The notes under the pieces were generated by a model that searched no databases, was not told where the DNA came from, and saw nothing but the letters and a program-made list of their open reading frames with translations. This document shows positions 3,219-41,460 of a DNA stretch of 64,000 bases, piece after piece. Positions within the stretch are counted from its first letter, which is position 1. The number at the start of each line of letters is the position of its first letter. This DNA is from Methylobacteriaceae bacterium. Its GTDB lineage: Bacteria; Pseudomonadota; Alphaproteobacteria; Rhizobiales; Beijerinckiaceae. Both the position numbers and the translations under genes were made by a program. The stretch is from the NCBI GenBank assembly GCA_020638195.1, contig JACKJC010000004.1, positions 413,403-477,402 of the forward strand, read 5' to 3'.

Positions 3219-4001
3219 ATGAGCGCGGGCAGGATCGAAGCACGGGCGGACGGCCCGATCGGCTGGGTGATCTTCGACAACCAAAAGCGTCGCAATGCGA
3301 TGTCGCTCGGAATGTGGACCGGGCTGACCGCCGCGCTCGAGCGCTTCGCGGCCGACCCCGCGATCCGAGCCGTCATCCTGCGCGGCGCGGGCGAGACCGC
3401 CTTCGTCTCGGGCGCCGACATCTCGGAATTCGACGCCCACCGCTCGGACGCCGCGGCCGCGGCCGATTACGCCAGGGCTACCGACGGCGCCTGGAAGGCG
3501 CTCGGCGATTTCGAAAAGCCGATGATCGCCATGATTCAGGGCTTCTGCTTCGGCGGCGGCGTCGCGATCGCGATGAAGGCGGACCTGCGCATCGCGGCCG
3601 ACAATTCCCTCTTCGCCATCCCCGCCGCTCGTCTCGGCATCGCTTATCCCACGCACTCGGTGCGCGATCTCGTTGCGCTGGTCGGCCCGGCAAAGGGCAA
3701 GGAAATCCTGTTCACCGGGATGCGCCTCGACGCCGGCGCCGCGCTCGCGGCCGGCCTCGTCAATCGTGTCACGCCGGTCGCTCATCTCGAGGCGGAAGTC
3801 GCCAGCCTCTGCGCGACCATCGCGGAGAACGCCCCACTGACCATCCGCGCCGCCAAGGAGACGATCGACCAGATCGCGCGCGACGAACACGATCCGAAGA
3901 AAGTCGCCGAATGCGTCGCCGCCTGTTTCGACAGTGCGGACTATGCCGAGGGTCGACGCGCCTTCATGGAAAAGCGTCGACCGCAGTTCACGGGGCGCTG
4001 A
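3219..4001 (+). CDS. enoyl-CoA hydratase/isomerase (crotonase) family protein
   Basis: NQKRRNAMS...ILRGAGETAFVSGADISEF...GFCFGGG, the crotonase oxyanion-hole pattern. Confidence 0.85.
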   Translation: MSAGRIEARADGPIGWVIFDNQKRRNAMSLGMWTGLTAALERFAADPAIRAVILRGAGETAFVSGADISEFDAHRSDAAAAADYARATDGAWKALGDFEKPMIAMIQGFCFGGGVAIAMKADLRIAADNSLFAIPAARLGIAYPTHSVRDLVALVGPAKGKEILFTGMRLDAGAALAAGLVNRVTPVAHLEAEVASLCATIAENAPLTIRAAKETIDQIARDEHDPKKVAECVAACFDSADYAEGRRAFMEKRRPQFTGR

Positions 4002-4011
4002 GAAACGCGTC

Positions 4012-4905
4012 ATGCATCAAAAGCGGATAATCGCCGGCGTTCTCGACATAGCTTATCGGGAATACGGCCAGAGTGACGGCTGGCCCTGCATCCTGAGCCA
4101 CGGCTTTCCCTACGACGTGCATACCTATGCGCATACCGCGCCTCTACTCGCAGACGCTGGCGCGCGCGTGATCGTTCCATATTTGCGCGGCTACGGTCCG
4201 ACGCGTTTCCTGTCGACCGATACGCCGCGATCCGGCGAGCAGGCGGCGCTGGCCGCCGATCTGCTCGCACTGATGGACGCGTTGAACATCGATCGCGCGA
4301 CCCTCGCAGGTTACGACTGGGGCGGACGCGCGGGCTGCATCGTCGCTGCGCTCTGGCCGCACCGCGTCGAGGCTCTGGTCTCGGGAAATTCCTACAACAT
4401 CCAGGACATATCTCGCGCGATGGAGCCCGCGTCGCCACGTGAAGAGGCCGCGCTCTGGTATCAGTATTATTTCCACAACGAGCGCGGCCGGCGCGGGCTC
4501 GCCGCCGACCGGCGCGGCGTGACGCGGCTGCTCTGGAAGATGTGGTCGCCGACATGGGACTTCGACGAGGCGACGTTCGAACGCAGTGCGACGGCCTTCG
4601 ACAATCCCGACTTCGTCGAGGTCGTGATCCATTCGTACCGCCATCGCTATGGTCTCGCGGCGGGCGATCCTGCGGTCGCGCACATCGAACAGAAGCTCGT
4701 CGCGCAGCCGCCGATCCTGGTTCCCACGATTTCGATCGACGGCGATGCGGACGGCGTCAATTTCGGCACTGCACAACACGCGAAGAAATTTCGAGGCCGG
4801 CACGAACATCGAATATTTCATGCTGCAGGGCACAATCTTCCGCAGGAGCGTCCGGCTGACTGGGCGCACGCGATCCTTGATGCGCGAAGCTTTGCTCAGG
4901 ACTGA
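4012..4905 (+). CDS. alpha/beta hydrolase, epoxide-hydrolase/haloacetate-dehalogenase-like
   Basis: HGFPYDVHTY plus an Asp nucleophile elbow (GYDWGG) and a C-terminal AGHNLPQE His motif. Start moved to the ATG at 4012 (MHQKRIIAG), just after the upstream stop. Confidence 0.8.
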   Translation: MHQKRIIAGVLDIAYREYGQSDGWPCILSHGFPYDVHTYAHTAPLLADAGARVIVPYLRGYGPTRFLSTDTPRSGEQAALAADLLALMDALNIDRATLAGYDWGGRAGCIVAALWPHRVEALVSGNSYNIQDISRAMEPASPREEAALWYQYYFHNERGRRGLAADRRGVTRLLWKMWSPTWDFDEATFERSATAFDNPDFVEVVIHSYRHRYGLAAGDPAVAHIEQKLVAQPPILVPTISIDGDADGVNFGTAQHAKKFRGRHEHRIFHAAGHNLPQERPADWAHAILDARSFAQD

Positions 4906-4987
4906 TCACAAGCCGACTGTCGTCTAATTGACATAAGGTCGGGCGCGTCCGTATGAAATACGTGTCGGACGATCTTGGTGACATTTC

Positions 4988-5659
4988 ATGCCGAAAACGC
5001 TTGCCGCCAAAAGTGACGGGTCGCCTGGCGTCGTCTACCGCGGAATTGTCGACGGTCTCTATCGCGGCCGTTACGTGCCGGGCCAACGCCTCGTCGAAGC
5101 CGATCTCACGCGCGATTTCGAGGTTGGCCGAGGCTCAGTGCGCGAGGCGCTGAGCCGGCTCGCCGCCGAGGGCCTCGTGTCCATGAACCTGCATCGCTCG
5201 GCGACCATTCGTTCGCTGAGCCGCGGCGAGACGCGCGACCTCGTCGCGCTGCTCGAAGTGCTCAACGGCTTCGCGGCGCGACTGGCGGCCGAACGCGTCG
5301 AGGAGGCAAACAATCGCAAGGTGATCGCGGAAGCCTACGCAAGTCTCGCCGACCCCGAAGTGCAGCGCGACTTCCTGCGCTTCGCACGCGCGCGCAACAC
5401 GTTTTACAAGACGATGGTGGCGATGGGCGCCAACCACGAACTCGCGCGCCTGATGCCACGCACAAACGTCGATCTCATTCGCGTGCAGTTTCGCTCCTAC
5501 GCGACCGTCGACGACGATCTGCGCATGGAGGACTACCGCGCAATCTACGAAGCGATCAGCGAAGGCGCGAGCCGCAAGGCGGAGACCGCCGCGCGCAACC
5601 ACATTCGCCGCCTCGGCGACGCCATCGACAAGCTGCCGGACGCGGCGTTCAACGGCTGA
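4988..5659 (+). CDS. GntR-family transcriptional regulator (FadR/FCD subfamily)
   Basis: N-terminal winged helix (YVPGQRLVEADLTRDFEVGRGSVREALSRLAAEGLV) plus a helical FCD-like C-terminus. Confidence 0.85.
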   Translation: MPKTLAAKSDGSPGVVYRGIVDGLYRGRYVPGQRLVEADLTRDFEVGRGSVREALSRLAAEGLVSMNLHRSATIRSLSRGETRDLVALLEVLNGFAARLAAERVEEANNRKVIAEAYASLADPEVQRDFLRFARARNTFYKTMVAMGANHELARLMPRTNVDLIRVQFRSYATVDDDLRMEDYRAIYEAISEGASRKAETAARNHIRRLGDAIDKLPDAAFNG

Positions 5660-5761
5660 AGGCGCCCGGCCTCTCGGCTTGCGGGCGAAGCCCCTTGATC
5701 GTCACCTGAAATCGTCCGACAATCCTTGGAAGGCCCGGCAGCGGCCACGGAGGATTGCGCC

Positions 5762-6964
5762 ATGGATTTCGAACTCGGTTCTCGCGCGAAGGAATTGCAG
5801 GCACGCGTCGCCGCCTTCATGGCAGCCCACGTCTACCCCAACGAACATCTCTACAGCGAGCAAGCGCAAGGCGCCGCCCGCTATCGCACACCACAGATTG
5901 TGCAGGACCTGAAGAAGAAGGCGAAAGCCGAAGGACTGTGGAACCTGTTTCTGCCTGGCGATCACGGCGCCGGGCTCACCAATCTCGAATACGCCCCGCT
6001 CGCCGAACTCATGGGCCGTGTCGACTGGTCGAGCGAGGTCTTCAACTGCTCAGCGCCCGACACCGGCAATATGGAAGTGCTGACGCTCTACGGGTCTGAA
6101 GCGCAGAAGAAGCAATGGCTCGAACCGCTACTCAACGGCGAGATCCGCTCGGCCTTCTCGATGACGGAACCGGAGGTCGCCTCCTCCGACGCGACAAACA
6201 TTCAATGCACGATCCTGCGCGATGGCGACCACTACGTCATCAACGGCCGGAAGTGGTTCACGTCGGGCGCTATGAACGAGGATTGCAAGATCCTCATCGT
6301 CATGGGCAAGACCGATCCCGACAATCCCGACAAGCACAAGCAGCAATCGATGATCCTTGTGCCGAAAGATACGCCCTGCGTCAAAATCATCCGCGACCTG
6401 AAGGTCTACGGCTACGATCACGCGCCAGTCGGCCATCCCGAGATCGTCTACGACAATGTGCGCGTGCCCGCCTCAAACATGCTGCTGGGCGAAGGCCGCG
6501 GCTTCGAGATCGCGCAAGGACGTCTCGGCCCCGGCCGCATCCATCATTGCATGCGCCTGATCGGCTGCGCGCAACGCGCGCTCGAACTCATGTGCCAGCG
6601 CGCCAACAAGCGCGTCGCTTTCGGCAAGCCGCTCGGCGAGCAGGGGTCTGTGCGCGAGGATATCGCGAACTCATATTGCGAGATCGAGCAGGCGCGACTG
6701 CTGACGCTGAAGGCGGCCGACAAGATGGATCGCGAAGGCAACAAGGCCGCGCGCGATCTCATCGCCGCCGCCAAGATCGTCGTGCCCTCGATGGCGGCGC
6801 GCGTGATCGATCGCGCCATCCAGATTCACGGAGGCATGGGCGTATCGCAGGACACGTTCCTGGCGGAATCCTATACTTACGCCCGCTTCATCCGCATCGG
6901 CGACGGCCCGGACCAGGTGCATATGTCGCAGCTCGGACGAACGCTGTTGAAGAAATATGCGTAG
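5762..6964 (+). CDS. acyl-CoA dehydrogenase
   Basis: [16 protein letters not shown]...[11 protein letters not shown]...RIHHCMR...QIHGGMG are ACAD family motifs. Start at MDFELGS. Confidence 0.9.
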
Positions 6965-35120: not shown

Positions 35121-35654
35121 CTACTTCTTCGGACGGAACGCCTGGATGTGCTTGGGATCGGTGTCGATCCACGCCCCACCCATCAGCTCCATACAATAGG
35201 GCACCGCCGCCATGATCGAATCCAGACACAGGTCGATCGAACGCGGCGAACCCGGCAGGTTGACCACCAGACACTTGCCGCGCTGCGCGGCGAGCTGGCG
35301 CGACAGGATGGCGGTCGGCGTCTGCGCCAGCGAAGCCTGACGCATTTTTTCGCCGAAGCCCGGAAATTCGCGTGGGCACGCAGCGAGCGTCGCCTCCGGC
35401 GTGAGATCGCGCGCGGAGGGCCCGGTCCCGCCAGTCGTGAGCACGAGATCGCAGCCGGCGACATCCACGAGATCGATGATCGTATCGCGCACGCTCTCGA
35501 ACCCGTCGGGGATCACGCGCCGCTCGATGCGGAACGGCGTCGTCAGCACGCGCTTGAAATAGGTTTCGATCGCGGGCCCCGAAATATCCTCGTAGACCCC
35601 CGCGCTCGCGCGGTCGGAGGCGGTGACGACGCCGATGATGGCTTCCCTGTTCAA
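35121..35654 (-). CDS. mogA: molybdopterin adenylyltransferase MogA
   Basis: IGVVTASDRASAGVYEDISGPAI...LVLTTGGTGPSARDLTPEAT...GSPRS. The TTG start overlaps the eutC stop (TTGA). The longer 35825 ORF extension is not Mog-like. Confidence 0.8.
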   Translation of the reverse strand: MNREAIIGVVTASDRASAGVYEDISGPAIETYFKRVLTTPFRIERRVIPDGFESVRDTIIDLVDVAGCDLVLTTGGTGPSARDLTPEATLAACPREFPGFGEKMRQASLAQTPTAILSRQLAAQRGKCLVVNLPGSPRSIDLCLDSIMAAVPYCMELMGGAWIDTDPKHIQAFRPKK

Positions 35655-36403
35655 CGCTTGTTTCCCTCGATTGCCGGCGCCTCGCGCGCGAAAGGCGCGA
35701 GCGCCTCGTCTTCTTTCAGCGCGACGCCCGTCTTGTTCAGACGGCGCGCAAGCGCAGCGATCGCCACGATCTTTCGCACGGCTTCGCCGATCGGCAAACC
35801 GGCAGGACGTATGTTCGAGACGCAATTGCGCTGCGCATCGCTGGTCGCGCCCGGCTTTGGCGCGAAAGTGATATAGGCGCCGAGACTGTCGGGCGAGGAA
35901 AGGCCCGGCCGCTCGCCGATCAACATGACGACGAGATCGGCGTCGAAGGCAGCGGCTATGTCGTCGCCGAGCCCCACCCGCGCCATCATCGCGATCACGG
36001 GCGGCGACCAGCGCCAGTCCGGCGACGCCGCGCGCAACGCGCGCACCAACGCGGGCCCATGCGCCTGCGCGGCGCGCGCGGAAAGTCCGTCGCCGAGAAC
36101 GAGCGCGCAGTCGAAACGGCCCGCGAGTTTTTCGCGGGAGGCGTCGGACAGGCGGCGCCCCTCGTCCGGACGTTCGAGATAGGCGCGGCGGTCGGCGGCG
36201 CGACTTTCGACGACCATAGGAGCCAGATCGGTAAGCTCCGAACTGATGCGCGCGATATCGAACGGCGCGTGGATCGCATCGCGCGCCTCAGCATGCGCCA
36301 TCTGGAATTCGAGCATACGGCGCGTCGGCAGCGAGACGCCCGTGCGCCCGAGCCCGATGCGCGCCGCGGTCAACCCGCGCAGATAGGCGAAGGGATCGCT
36401 CAT
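35651..36403 (-). CDS. eutC: ethanolamine ammonia-lyase small (light) subunit
   Basis: LRGLTAARIGLGRTGVSLPT...FQMAHAEARDAIH...LGDGLSARA. 4-nt overlap with eutB. Confidence 0.9.
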   Translation of the reverse strand: MSDPFAYLRGLTAARIGLGRTGVSLPTRRMLEFQMAHAEARDAIHAPFDIARISSELTDLAPMVVESRAADRRAYLERPDEGRRLSDASREKLAGRFDCALVLGDGLSARAAQAHGPALVRALRAASPDWRWSPPVIAMMARVGLGDDIAAAFDADLVVMLIGERPGLSSPDSLGAYITFAPKPGATSDAQRNCVSNIRPAGLPIGEAVRKIVAIAALARRLNKTGVALKEDEALAPFAREAPAIEGNKR

Positions 36404-37788
36404 GCGTCGCCCGCAAACGACAGCAGCCGCGAGGCGTCGCGCCGTGCTTCGGGCAGCATGCAGCCGGCGTCATCCATCAGTCCCATGCGCTGCAGCCAGG
36501 CCTCGAATTCCGGCGCAGGCCTGAGCCCCAGAACCTCGCGCACGTAGAGCGCATCGTGAAACGAGGTCGACTGATAGTTGAGCATGATGTCGTCGGCGCC
36601 CGGCACGCCCATCACATAGGTGCAGCCGGCGACGCCGAGCAGCGTCAGGAGATTGTCCATGTCGTCCTGGTCGGCCTCGGCGTGATTGGTGTAGCAGACG
36701 TCCACGCCCATCGGCAGGCCCATCAGCTTGCCGCAGAAATGATCCTCCAGCCCTGCGCGGATGATTTCCTTGCCGTCGTAGAGATATTCCGGCCCGATGA
36801 AGCCGACGACCGTGTTGACGAGCAGCGGCCTGTAGCGCCGCGCCACCGCATAGGCGCGCGCCTCCATCGTCTGCTGGTCGACGCCGTGATGCGCATTGGC
36901 CGACAGCGCGGAACCTTGTCCCGTCTCGAAATACATGACGTTGGACCCGAGCGTGCCTCGGTTAAGGGCTTGAGCAGCGTCATGCGCTTCATCAAGCAGC
37001 GCCAGCGATACGCCAAAAGATTCGTTCGCGGCCTGCGACCCGGCGATCGACTGGAACACGAGATCGACTGGCGCGCACTTCTCCATCGCCTGCATCATGG
37101 TCGTGACATGCGCGAGCACGCAGGTCTGGGTTGGAATGTCGTAGGTCTGCCGCAACTCGTCGAGCCGCTGCAGCAGCAGTGTCGCCTGCGCGGCGCTGTC
37201 GGTCGCCGGGTTGATGCCGATGACGGCGTCGCCCGCGCCGAGCAGCAGGCCGTCGATCACGCTGGCGGCAATGCCGCGCAGATCGTCGGTCGGATGGTTC
37301 GGCTGCAACCGCACCGACAGCCGGCCGGGCAGGCCGATCGTGTCGCGGAATTGCGTGACGACGGAAATCTTGCGCGCGACGAGAATCAGGTCCTGGTTGC
37401 GCATCAGCTTCGACACCGCGGCAGCCATTTCCGGCGTGACGCCCGGCGCGAGCGCGGAGAGCGCTTCGGTTGTCGCGGCGTCGGACAGCAGCCAGTCGCG
37501 GAATTCGCCCACGGTGAGCGAGGCAATCGGCGCGAAGGCCGCGGCGTCATGACTTTCGAAGATCAGGCGCGACACCTCATCGGTGTCGGCTGGCACGATC
37601 TCCTCGCCGAGAAGCCGCTTCAGTGGAACGTCAGCCAGCGCCATGCGCGCCGCCACACGCTCGGCGTCAGTTTCGGCGGCGAGGCCGGCGAGCCTGTCGC
37701 CGGAGCGCGCCGGCGAGGCCTTGGCCAGCAGCGTGCGTAGGTCGGGGAAGGCAGAAAACGGGGAGCCGACTGATGACGCTTGACTCAT
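36400..37788 (-). CDS. eutB: ethanolamine ammonia-lyase large (heavy) subunit
   Basis: 462 aa. LQPNHPTDD...GINPATDS...YFETGQGSALS...GLEDHFCGKLMGLPMGVDVCYTNHA are diagnostic EutB motifs. Confidence 0.95.
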   Translation of the reverse strand: MSQASSVGSPFSAFPDLRTLLAKASPARSGDRLAGLAAETDAERVAARMALADVPLKRLLGEEIVPADTDEVSRLIFESHDAAAFAPIASLTVGEFRDWLLSDAATTEALSALAPGVTPEMAAAVSKLMRNQDLILVARKISVVTQFRDTIGLPGRLSVRLQPNHPTDDLRGIAASVIDGLLLGAGDAVIGINPATDSAAQATLLLQRLDELRQTYDIPTQTCVLAHVTTMMQAMEKCAPVDLVFQSIAGSQAANESFGVSLALLDEAHDAAQALNRGTLGSNVMYFETGQGSALSANAHHGVDQQTMEARAYAVARRYRPLLVNTVVGFIGPEYLYDGKEIIRAGLEDHFCGKLMGLPMGVDVCYTNHAEADQDDMDNLLTLLGVAGCTYVMGVPGADDIMLNYQSTSFHDALYVREVLGLRPAPEFEAWLQRMGLMDDAGCMLPEARRDASRLLSFAGDA

Positions 37789-37797
37789 GATCGCAGG

Positions 37798-39339
37798 TTA
37801 CACCCCAGTGAATTGTCTACTTAGAATTTGTAGTTTTCTCTGCGAGGCATAGTCGCGGCAGAACAATGCAAACTGCTCTTCCCGTCCGGAAAATTTTTGG
37901 TCATCGCCTTCACCAAAGCGCGCCACATCCCACACGCGACACCCTGATGCGGCGCTGATCTTTAGCTTGGGTCCGATGGCGGAGGCCCGAGCGTCCCAAT
38001 ATACAAAGGCGGTTAGGTAGTCGGAAGTCCCAAGCTTCAGCGATATCGGAGAAGCGAAGATACATTTATTTTTTCCAATTTTTCCCTCGACGTTCGAATC
38101 AAAAGTGTATGTGATTGAAGTCTTGAGCTTAGAGTCGCATAGTGACATCACGCCCAATTCATCGCCTTGTTCGAATAATGTCGTGTATGGAAGCTCGATA
38201 GGCTTTGACCAGCCGATAGCTGATAGAAATGTCGAAACGATACCAGCACGCTTTGACAGCTCTTCAAAGAGCCTATTCCTGCCAACCCGTACCCCGCTAA
38301 CACGAGCAAAATTTTTCCCGTCAACGGCAAAATTGACGGTTAGACTGCCTCTTGAAGCAGCGACAATAAATTTCAGCGAACTGGCGAGCTCCGTAATCTC
38401 ATATTTTTTGTTTGGCTCCACTTCTGCAGTGAAAGCCACACTATCGTTACGCATCGTGACATTCAAAAGTGGATTGAACAATCGGGCTTTGCGAAGTTCG
38501 AACGGAAGATTGCTAAGCGGCGGAACAACAACATGCATTTGCAGCCGATCACCCGCTTTTCGGCCGGAATGCCAATGCATATCACACATCCGAGACGAGG
38601 TCGGTGTAATTTTCAAAACCCCCGCCGAGAATTTTTCTACGCTGAGCGGTATTCCAAATCGAAGCGAGGAAATTTCAATCCCCTCTACTTTTAAATCGCC
38701 GAGACCAAGCGTTGCATCTATAAAATCAGAGACCGGTACGGCACCACTCAGTGAAAATTGGAATGCACCGCTTTCATAACCTACGGTGCGAAGCCATTCC
38801 GCTTTCTTCGCAGAATAGGCTGAAGCATCCGTGCCTATGATACTCTTGACAGCGTCTGCGAGCGGCGATCCTAGTAGCACTTCCTCCGCCGCATCGGCGA
38901 CAAAGACCATGGACTGACGGTGAAGATTAGCGCCCCCCAACGCTTCACTCTGCCGGACTTTCTTCAGCGTCTGCGCAATCCACTCAAGTCCAAAGTGGCA
39001 CAAATACATTTTCGTCGGGGCGTTGGAGCCACCAAATTCATAAATAACAACGAATGCAGGAAGGATTGTTTGAGTCAGATGCAAAAAATTACTTAATTTC
39101 ATCGAAAGGCGGCGATCATCGAAATTATCGGTCGCCTTGATCTGGCAAAGAATTTTTAATGGTGGTGGCTGGGAGTCGAGGAACACTGCGGGAAGCTGAT
39201 TCCGCGGAAATTCAACAAACCAATCCCATCCCCTCTCATCATGCTTAGGAGGGGTGGCGGACAAATGAGAGTCTAAGCATTGCCTCTCGAAGAAATTCTC
39301 CCCGAGTCTCCCCAACTGCCTTGTTCTATCTTCGGCCAT
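37798..39339 (-). CDS. orphan low-GC protein: DUF4365-like PD-(D/E)xK N-terminal domain plus unrecognised ~390-aa C-terminal domain
   Basis: 513-aa ORF spanning the only strongly AT-rich block in the window. The N-terminus GRLGENFFERQC...HDERGWDWFVEFP...LCQIKAT...LPAFVVIYEF fits the DUF4365 pattern (E..G...D.G.D..vE...Q.K...P..vv.y). Confidence 0.8.
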   Translation of the reverse strand: MAEDRTRQLGRLGENFFERQCLDSHLSATPPKHDERGWDWFVEFPRNQLPAVFLDSQPPPLKILCQIKATDNFDDRRLSMKLSNFLHLTQTILPAFVVIYEFGGSNAPTKMYLCHFGLEWIAQTLKKVRQSEALGGANLHRQSMVFVADAAEEVLLGSPLADAVKSIIGTDASAYSAKKAEWLRTVGYESGAFQFSLSGAVPVSDFIDATLGLGDLKVEGIEISSLRFGIPLSVEKFSAGVLKITPTSSRMCDMHWHSGRKAGDRLQMHVVVPPLSNLPFELRKARLFNPLLNVTMRNDSVAFTAEVEPNKKYEITELASSLKFIVAASRGSLTVNFAVDGKNFARVSGVRVGRNRLFEELSKRAGIVSTFLSAIGWSKPIELPYTTLFEQGDELGVMSLCDSKLKTSITYTFDSNVEGKIGKNKCIFASPISLKLGTSDYLTAFVYWDARASAIGPKLKISAASGCRVWDVARFGEGDDQKFSGREEQFALFCRDYASQRKLQILSRQFTGV

Positions 39340-39379
39340 CGATCAAATCCGCGAATCGATGGCCGATTATAATTCCGAC

Positions 39380-41395
<2,016 letters not shown>

Positions 41396-41460
41396 TGGAA
41401 ACATAGACTTGCCACCGGTCCGCTTCAAGCGTAGCCCGGCGCCAGCTTTTCAGAGGGCCC

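Follow-up and report, generated by a model that had tools for sequence, protein, structure and literature searches.

The insert between thiC and eutB

We analyzed a 64,000-nt stretch of genome from a Methylobacteriaceae bacterium (GenBank assembly GCA_020638195.1, contig JACKJC010000004.1, positions 413,403 to 477,402), referred to below as the window and numbered from its first nucleotide. Our subject is a single complete open reading frame (ORF), the insert, which occupies positions 37798..39339 on the (−) strand and, according to the ORF listing, has an ATG start and encodes 513 amino acids (aa) followed by a stop codon. It sits tightly between host genes on the same strand. Upstream is thiC (39380..41329, (−), from the ORF listing), whose stop codon is 40 nt away (39340–39379); downstream is eutB (36400–37788, (−)), whose ATG follows after 9 nt (37789–37797), and then eutC (35651–36403, (−)). 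The latter two were identified by Pfam matches to EutB and EutC on identical contigs, where the other neighbors include MoCF, MFS, and further genes. A first-pass annotation, made from the DNA letters alone, had given the same position and the same 9-nt and 40-nt spacing, in agreement with the ORF listing.

The insert stands out sharply in composition. Its guanine-plus-cytosine (GC) content is 0.49 overall and ranges from 0.45 to 0.51 along the ORF, compared with 0.61–0.72 in the flanks, and the bin at 38001–39000 (GC 0.484) is the sole 1-kb bin below 0.58 in the window. GC at third codon positions (GC3) is 0.49 in the insert versus 0.80–0.87 in six neighboring genes (eutB 0.83, eutC 0.80, thiC 0.87, and three others), and its codon log-likelihood under a host model is −1.66 versus −0.71 to −0.97 for the same neighbors. 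The borders of the low-GC tract fall 5–8 nt from the ends of the ORF when a 200-nt smoothing window is used; the insert ORF is the entire low-GC island. Because GC3 and codon usage break here, and because the borders coincide with the ORF ends, the insert is a foreign, recently acquired, and self-contained gene. These results bear out the earlier description of the only low-GC block in the window, stepping at the ORF ends and foreign in origin. The same annotation had seen no integrase, transposase, tRNA, or obvious direct repeats beside the gene, and our searches concurred: a tRNA search of the window found none, the window had no similarity to the integrases and the IS66 transposase taken from related loci, and repeats at the insert borders were at chance level only.

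The arrangement is not confined to one assembly. A protein identical to the insert product (P0001) is present in a Methylobacteriaceae metagenome-assembled genome, where it is annotated as hypothetical, and in 13 metagenome contigs from several samples, all 13 of which keep the order thiC, gene, eutB. At one locus (L187; JGI 3300010349) the DNA is 100% identical to the window, yet another pipeline had called the gene as a 462-aa product. We rejected this call as a genuine variant, as the identical DNA marks it as a start-call artifact. The 513-aa start is supported by the family alignment described below; the shorter call would remove the catalytic residues E14 and D39.

We also looked for a thiC–eutB site from which the gene is missing. 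Among the matches listed in a genome scan with EutB as the probe, the relatives were at most 76% identical, none had thiC beside eutB, and none carried the gene. Every contig returned by exact look-ups of EutB carries the insert, and ThiC was not on record. An allele pair with the site empty in one member and filled in the other was thus not found in the EutB-based searches.

The protein family and its two modules

Direct searches with the insert product yielded no usable match in Pfam (E ≤ 1), PADLOC (E ≤ 1), NCBIfam, PHROGs, or the sequences of the PDB. A word-indexed search of 5.8 billion proteins found three distant relatives only; by phmmer, the product matched P0002 (E = 1.3e-51, 80% coverage), P0003, and P0004. 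An exhaustive HMMER search with a four-sequence profile recovered 2,135 cluster representatives (clusters at 50% identity) at E ≤ 1e-3, of which 1,177 reached E ≤ 1e-30, and a further word-indexed search with an 87-sequence profile added nothing. Nearly all of the best 150 matches were 500–545 aa long, and their alignments started at the N-terminus and took in most of the chain. Family members are found in Alpha- and Gammaproteobacteria, on plasmids, and in both P2-like prophages and P4-like satellites. The insert product is a divergent member, with 17%–34% identity, and tblastn alignments to the plasmid members covered at most 86% of the query.

Across 112 aligned sequences, D34, W38, D39, Q66, K68, Y175, K179, R227, and F228 are invariant, and E14, E43, G13, C21, T70, N84, P94, F96, H115, G187, G212, and R286 are nearly so (E14 was kept in 110 and E43 in 104 of the 112). 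The insert product retains every family-invariant residue, including Y175, K179, and R227–F228, which lie outside the nuclease domain. Judged by these alignments, it is a full-length member of a ∼520-aa single-gene family, "DUF4365/PDDEXK_5," in which a predicted nuclease domain is joined to a family-specific C-terminal region.

The N-terminal module, a PD-(D/E)xK nuclease domain at residues 1–135 (38935..39339, (−)), was delimited from a structural model, Foldseek matches, conservation, and the DUF4365 matches of relatives. The N-terminal motif quoted in the first-pass annotation is present in the product, and it had been read as a DUF4365-like PD-(D/E)xK fold with a QxK site. That reading came with a predicted direct hmmscan match to PF14280, the Pfam entry for DUF4365, and here the outcome was divided. 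The insert product itself had no match to PF14280 even at E ≤ 1. When 87 relatives were scanned singly, 26 matched it at E ≤ 0.01 over residues ∼9–115 (best E = 2.8e-6), and the gathering score (24.3 bits) was reached by one of the 10 relatives inspected. As the strict Pfam criterion lies out of its reach, we file the insert product as DUF4365-like and not as a threshold member; because the direct match fails, the DUF4365 assignment rests on the relatives and on structure. The fold and the QxK site were upheld by these relatives, by the model, and by the invariance of D39, Q66, and K68, so that support by profile and by structure was obtained together.

An AlphaFold model built from four sequences was poor, with a predicted local distance difference test score (pLDDT) of 59, and one built from 87 sequences reached a pLDDT of 92.4 and a predicted template modeling score of 0.78. 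In the latter model the N-terminal 135 residues form an alpha-beta-beta-beta-alpha-beta PD-(D/E)xK core with pLDDT >90. A Foldseek search of the PDB placed DREN-APAZ chains of SPARDA systems in all of the top 15 positions, with E-values down to 1e-6 and a probability of ∼1 for the top 11; the match at rank 15 had E = 1.7e-3 and a probability of 0.69. Against viral models, the meaningful Foldseek matches, all confined to the N-terminal domain, were a DUF4365 protein of Leptospira phage LE1 (target-normalized template modeling score [TMt] 0.53), RecU, and PD(D/E)XK proteins. The authors of the SPARDA work describe DREN/DUF4365 as a PD-(D/E)xK nuclease whose topology is Hjc-like and whose active site resembles that of TnsA. 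The activity of NbaSPARDA is abolished by the D41A/Q60A/K62A triple mutation, and in TmuRE, Q62 and K64 are the predicted active-site residues, the Q62A/K64A mutant having been made as an inactive control. We take D39, Q66, and K68 as the active site because their positions correspond to D41, Q60, and K62 of NbaSPARDA and to Q62 and K64 of TmuRE. The putative active-site codons, all (−), are at 39298–39300 (E14), 39223–39225 (D39), 39142–39144 (Q66), and 39136–39138 (K68). On the strength of the model, the N-terminal 135 residues are a PD-(D/E)xK nuclease of the DREN/DUF4365 type in which the E14...D39...Q66-x-K68 site is intact, and nuclease activity is predicted.

The rest of the chain consists of linker helices and a middle region (residues 136–300; 38440..38934, (−)), defined by conservation and containing Y175, K179, G187, G212, R227–F228 (in an RFGI motif), and R286, followed by a distal C-terminal region (residues 301–513; 37801..38439, (−)), a fast-evolving mixed alpha/beta module modeled with pLDDT of ∼90–97. 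The ∼380 residues beyond the nuclease domain matched nothing in the domain libraries in any of the 87 members, and the C-terminal part of the insert product had no match in Pfam, PADLOC, PHROGs, or PDB sequences. The earlier statement that this part resembles nothing nameable therefore still holds; its description as beta-rich gives way to the mixed alpha/beta structure of the model. Mean pairwise identity falls along the chain, from 0.43 (residues 1–135) to 0.31 (136–190), 0.28 (191–300), and 0.165 (301–513), and close enterobacterial relatives are 0.85 identical in the nuclease domain versus 0.72 in the C-terminal part. The distal region is a candidate sensor or specificity module.

SPARDA DREN-APAZ (NbaSPARDA, XauSPARDA, and TmuRE-Ago; PDB 9jt2, 9jsz, 9qcc, 9qbq, and 9vx6) is thus the best structural match to the insert product (E = 1e-6), and the two have in common the DREN/DUF4365 nuclease fold, the D...QxK site, and a C-terminal module of ∼300 aa after a linker. 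The likeness does not extend to sequence: the solved SPARDA chains have no sequence-level similarity to the family even with profiles, as a full-length profile against PDB sequences returned no SPARDA chain (a spurious hemoglobin match only) and a profile of the N-terminal domain returned none either. In 14 of the 15 SPARDA matches the Foldseek alignments spanned 500–550 columns, with a global template modeling (TM) score of 0.17–0.24 and a root-mean-square deviation of ∼25 Å; because of these global values, only the nuclease domain demonstrably superposes on DREN-APAZ. The length of the alignments hints that, as modeled, the C-terminal module may resemble APAZ. A likeness of the C-terminal part to the sliding clamp (DnaN) was also considered and set aside, as its many Foldseek matches were not significant (probability ≤0.13, TM ≤0.08). 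The systems differ, too, in their partners. SPARDA has an adjacent short Argonaute (MID-PIWI), whereas the neighbors of the insert in the window are thiC and eutB and the family loci have no conserved partner.

Genomic settings of the family and expression of the insert

We collected 89 family loci (80 metagenomic, four viral, four plasmid, and one other), and all 89 encode a full-length member of 505–540 aa. No recurrent partner gene was found among them; the largest neighbor cluster, integrase-like, was present in six of the ∼50 loci with usable flanks. The gene travels solitary, as a stand-alone unit. Its ∼296 neighboring ORFs fall into three kinds: genes of mobile elements (integrases, IS66, IS21, and rve), genes of the defense type (Mrr_cat, YhcG, two of BrxL, one CBASS cyclase, PDC-S02, one AbiEii-like ATPase, and four of Fic), and housekeeping genes (SHMT, aconitase, citrate synthase, and fumarase). 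Piwi was not among the top neighbor Pfam families of these loci.

The compositional contrast seen in the window recurs across the family. In 54 of 56 loci the gene had a lower GC content than the DNA on either side (mean difference −8.9 points, p = 6e-10), indicating frequent transfer. Seventeen loci combined long flanks with a clear trough; in 16 of them the low-GC tract ended within 300 nt of the ORF (median 25–36 nt), and because these 16 show a sharp single-gene trough we regard the one-gene islet as a trait of the family. It seems that the gene is transferred by itself, and that it often lands between housekeeping genes.

Two of the neighborhoods invite separate mention. On the Methylocystis rosea plasmid pGW6_2 (L101, 3427–8476), the member lies 5 nt after genes for an ATP-binding protein and an 822-aa S8 peptidase on the same strand; S8 peptidases adjoin two further members, and there may be an occasional three-gene arrangement. 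Fic/DOC-domain genes are found at L101, L102, and two further metagenome loci, that is, four times in ∼296 ORFs, which looks frequent, no background rate having been computed; these neighbors did not cluster by sequence.

Several members occupy established defense hotspots of phages and satellites. One locus (L097) is a P2-like prophage whose gpA and portal proteins are 71% and 90% identical to those of Erwinia phage ENT90, and the family gene lies between the two. A Brenneria tiliae prophage (L193) has the same gpA–portal layout, with a 62-aa ORF also in the interval; in both prophages the family gene is the only large ORF between gpA and portal. In five P4-like satellites (L188–L192) the interval from Psu to the integrase contains the family gene and no other ORF. 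A P4-hotspot member from Escherichia coli, P0153, is found for example in strain C5 (NZ_CP010122.1, 672262–673815). On the other side of Psu, at 3648–6641 in the degenerate P4-like elements L189–L192, we noted GmrSD_N and EcoR124_C fragments and a 615-aa protein with no Pfam match; all of these may be remnants of other defense cargo.

Both the P2 gpA–portal and the P4 psu–int hotspots have been shown to hold anti-phage systems (Rousset et al. 2022, PMC9122126). Table S1B of that study (Cell Host Microbe, PMC9122126) lists as system #15 a "DUF4365/PDDEXK_5" gene that occurs 82 times and is glossed as having an "N-terminal nuclease domain." This sequence matches our family profile hidden Markov model with 377 bits (E = 1.6e-116) and, by blastp, the insert product over residues 12–287 with 29% identity (E = 2.6e-32). 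System #15 belongs to the same family as the insert product: it, too, is a lone gene, encoding ∼517 aa, and it shares the invariant motifs. The two differ in setting: system #15 resides in the P4 psu–int hotspot, and the window copy is a distant branch on an alphaproteobacterial chromosome, between housekeeping genes. A 2026 Nucleic Acids Research (NAR) study found that six of eight randomly chosen unknown loci from the P4 hotspot protected against phages, and the prior for defense is therefore high. We compared the systems newly named in the NAR paper as well, and none shares the architecture of the insert product. The association with defense that the first-pass annotation had proposed to check among relatives was found, in their position as sole cargo of the P4 psu–int and P2 gpA–portal hotspots and in the Rousset 2022 listing. 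The novelty that it had assumed is lower, since the family is large and already catalogued.

Back in the window, the immediate surroundings bear on how the insert might be expressed. A TPP (thiamine pyrophosphate) riboswitch controlling thiC lies at 41298..41396, (−) (Rfam RF00059, 69.6 bits, E = 2e-12), and apart from one weak intragenic site we found no promoter or terminator consensus at 37600–39600. Because there is no terminator between thiC and the insert and the riboswitch lies upstream of thiC, thiamine may exert partial control over the foreign gene and over eutBC. A stem-loop with a perfect 13-bp stem (39327..39371, (−); inverted repeat I3) is located in the spacer after the thiC stop, and the ATG of the insert lies inside its 3′ arm; the RNA folds with −25.1 kcal/mol (z = −2.95). 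A role for this start-codon hairpin as a family-wide regulatory element was rejected, as the mean z across 80 other loci was 0.17. The stem-loop is a feature of this locus rather than of the family. The insert is probably transcribed by read-through from thiC, and the hairpin, by burying the start codon, probably damps its translation, which may limit production of a potentially toxic nuclease. Long shadow ORFs run antisense to thiC (39359–41434, (+), 691 aa) and to eutB (36556–37740, (+), 394 aa); they are the usual artifact of GC-rich DNA and not genes.

A proposed defense role and its alternatives

Beyond SPARDA and system #15, three kinds of known systems are informative for comparison. 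Divona is a validated anti-phage system that consists of one gene in the chromosomal integron of Vibrio cholerae (in strain N16961, the cassette immediately downstream of VCA0373), and its homologs in E. coli are located near integrases (Darracq, Littner et al., bioRxiv 10.1101/2024.07.02.601686). Like the insert product, it combines in one polypeptide an N-terminal DUF4365 nuclease and an unrelated C-terminal domain. That domain is described as crr6 (PF08847), which none of the 87 family members matches at E ≤ 0.01 and none of 10 at E ≤ 0.1, and PF08847 was not among the precomputed domains on relatives. Divona is an integron cassette, whereas the window has no integrase-like sequence (no attC search was made). 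Compared by description rather than by sequence, Divona is a close analog of the insert product and possibly a relative. The PADLOC model PDC-M02A (169 positions) matched ∼19 of the 87 relatives weakly (best E = 2.7e-5), and only over residues 22–73 of the nuclease core. It represents component A of a candidate system, whereas the insert product has no match to it and the family has no recurrent partner; our literature search for "PDC-M02" found nothing. Mrr-type (Type IV) and Hjc/RecU/TnsA-type nucleases, finally, have the PD-(D/E)xK core in common with the insert product, whose E...D...QxK arrangement is that of TnsA. Type IV enzymes are, like the insert, solitary nucleases with no methyltransferase. 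They differ in that the nuclease type of the insert is Hjc-like and not Mrr-like in topology (per the SPARDA authors), with no recognizable DNA-binding domain and no sequence match.

Our preferred reading, held with moderate confidence, is that the insert is a single-protein anti-phage or anti-plasmid defense nuclease gated by a sensor. A defense function is well supported by context and makes the gene a good candidate. In the activation that we propose, the C-terminal module would keep the nuclease off until it senses a phage protein or a nucleic acid as the cue of infection; oligomerization would then probably bring nuclease domains together, and the activated nuclease would degrade DNA indiscriminately, as in abortive infection. 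The oligomerization step is proposed because the DREN of SPARDA, which is autoinhibited, cleaves DNA only as a tetramer in the activated filament. A bolder version, which we regard as doubtful, holds that the ∼330-residue C-terminal module is a true APAZ-like (Argonaute N-L1-L2-like) nucleic-acid binder; a second twist would be that the gene is a self-moving single-gene unit with no recombinase. If the module were APAZ-like, the family would be an Argonaute-independent cousin of the SPARDA effector, a DREN-APAZ-like protein acting alone to sense invader nucleic acid and unleash a collateral DNase.

A number of observations weigh against the defense reading. The insert product lacks a direct match to PF14280 and to every PADLOC model, and both the sensor role of the C-terminal part and the oligomerization are drawn by analogy. 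The close enterobacterial relatives display a mild gradient of divergence and lack a hypervariable patch such as certain sensors have. Our literature search found no published phenotype or mechanism for system #15 or any other family member, and the E. coli allele, labeled "hypothetical protein" in RefSeq, occurs in nine of 5,426 complete E. coli genomes. The window copy itself lies outside any phage or satellite hotspot, between housekeeping genes and with no mobile element in the 64 kb, and many relatives likewise have a housekeeping setting with no defense island. The window protein shares only ∼29% identity with the members in the hotspots, and its function could therefore differ from theirs.

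The main rival to the defense reading, which we nonetheless consider unlikely, is a restriction-type enzyme (Type IV or IIS-like), in which the C-terminal module would recognize a sequence or base modification and invading DNA would be cut directly, with neither abortive infection nor the sensing of a protein involved. Modification-dependent enzymes are typically encoded, as here, by a lone nuclease gene that lacks a methyltransferase partner, the specificity domains of restriction enzymes likewise diverge fast, and residues Y175, K179, R227, and R286 of the middle region could contact nucleic acid; Mrr_cat and GmrSD genes are also found in family neighborhoods. What tells against such an enzyme is that neither Pfam in the 87 members nor Foldseek identified a known DNA-binding domain or modification reader (SRA, PUA-like, or winged helix), and that the characterized DREN domain is an indiscriminate collateral nuclease.

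The one-gene islets raise another alternative, to which we give little credence, namely a selfish, self-mobilizing gene of the free-standing homing-endonuclease type that inserts alone into intergenic sites and persists with no benefit to the host. This would account for the close fit of the low-GC tract to the ORF in 16 of 17 loci, for the tight insertion between conserved housekeeping genes, and for the finding that most loci, the window included, are without an integrase or transposase; the DREN tetramer, moreover, resembles the PD-(D/E)xK homing endonuclease I-Ssp6803I. However, a protein of ∼520 aa with a large extra module is atypical of homing endonucleases, the widely differing insertion sites argue against a specific target site, no empty/filled allele pair showing precise homing was found in the EutB-based searches, and the presence of the gene in the P2 and P4 hotspots, where cargo is exchanged, accords with recombination at conserved flanks rather than with homing. 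It is very unlikely, in our estimate, that the gene was acquired and is now silent or decaying in its present host, not expressed or not functional. The insert has no promoter consensus of its own, a −25 kcal/mol hairpin unseen in other family loci buries its start codon, and its GC3 is unameliorated. Against this stand an intact frame with all family-invariant residues kept, the 100% identity of the L187 DNA together with an identical protein in the same context in all 13 contigs, and an operon-like tight spacing that allows read-through from thiC. A housekeeping repair or recombination enzyme, that is, an Hjc/RecU-like junction resolvase with an accessory domain, seems to us highly improbable. 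The DREN fold does resemble Hjc, and RecU is among the viral structural matches, but a patchy distribution on plasmids, prophages, and satellites, a systematically foreign GC content, and the rarity of the E. coli allele (nine of 5,426 genomes) all point elsewhere.

Whatever its mode of action, the insert is a new, divergent member of a catalogued and uncharacterized candidate defense family. That family is large (more than 2,000 clusters at 50% identity) and still annotated as "hypothetical"; it joins the executing nuclease of SPARDA to another module and works with no Argonaute. The window copy demonstrates that such genes can land as precise one-gene islets within strings of metabolic genes, and one-gene insertions of this kind escape island-based defense finders. 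The sharp GC trough, found family-wide, raises the question of how the gene moves. If the family is defensive, it would add a compact single-gene system and would mean that a DREN nuclease can be controlled by something besides Argonaute.

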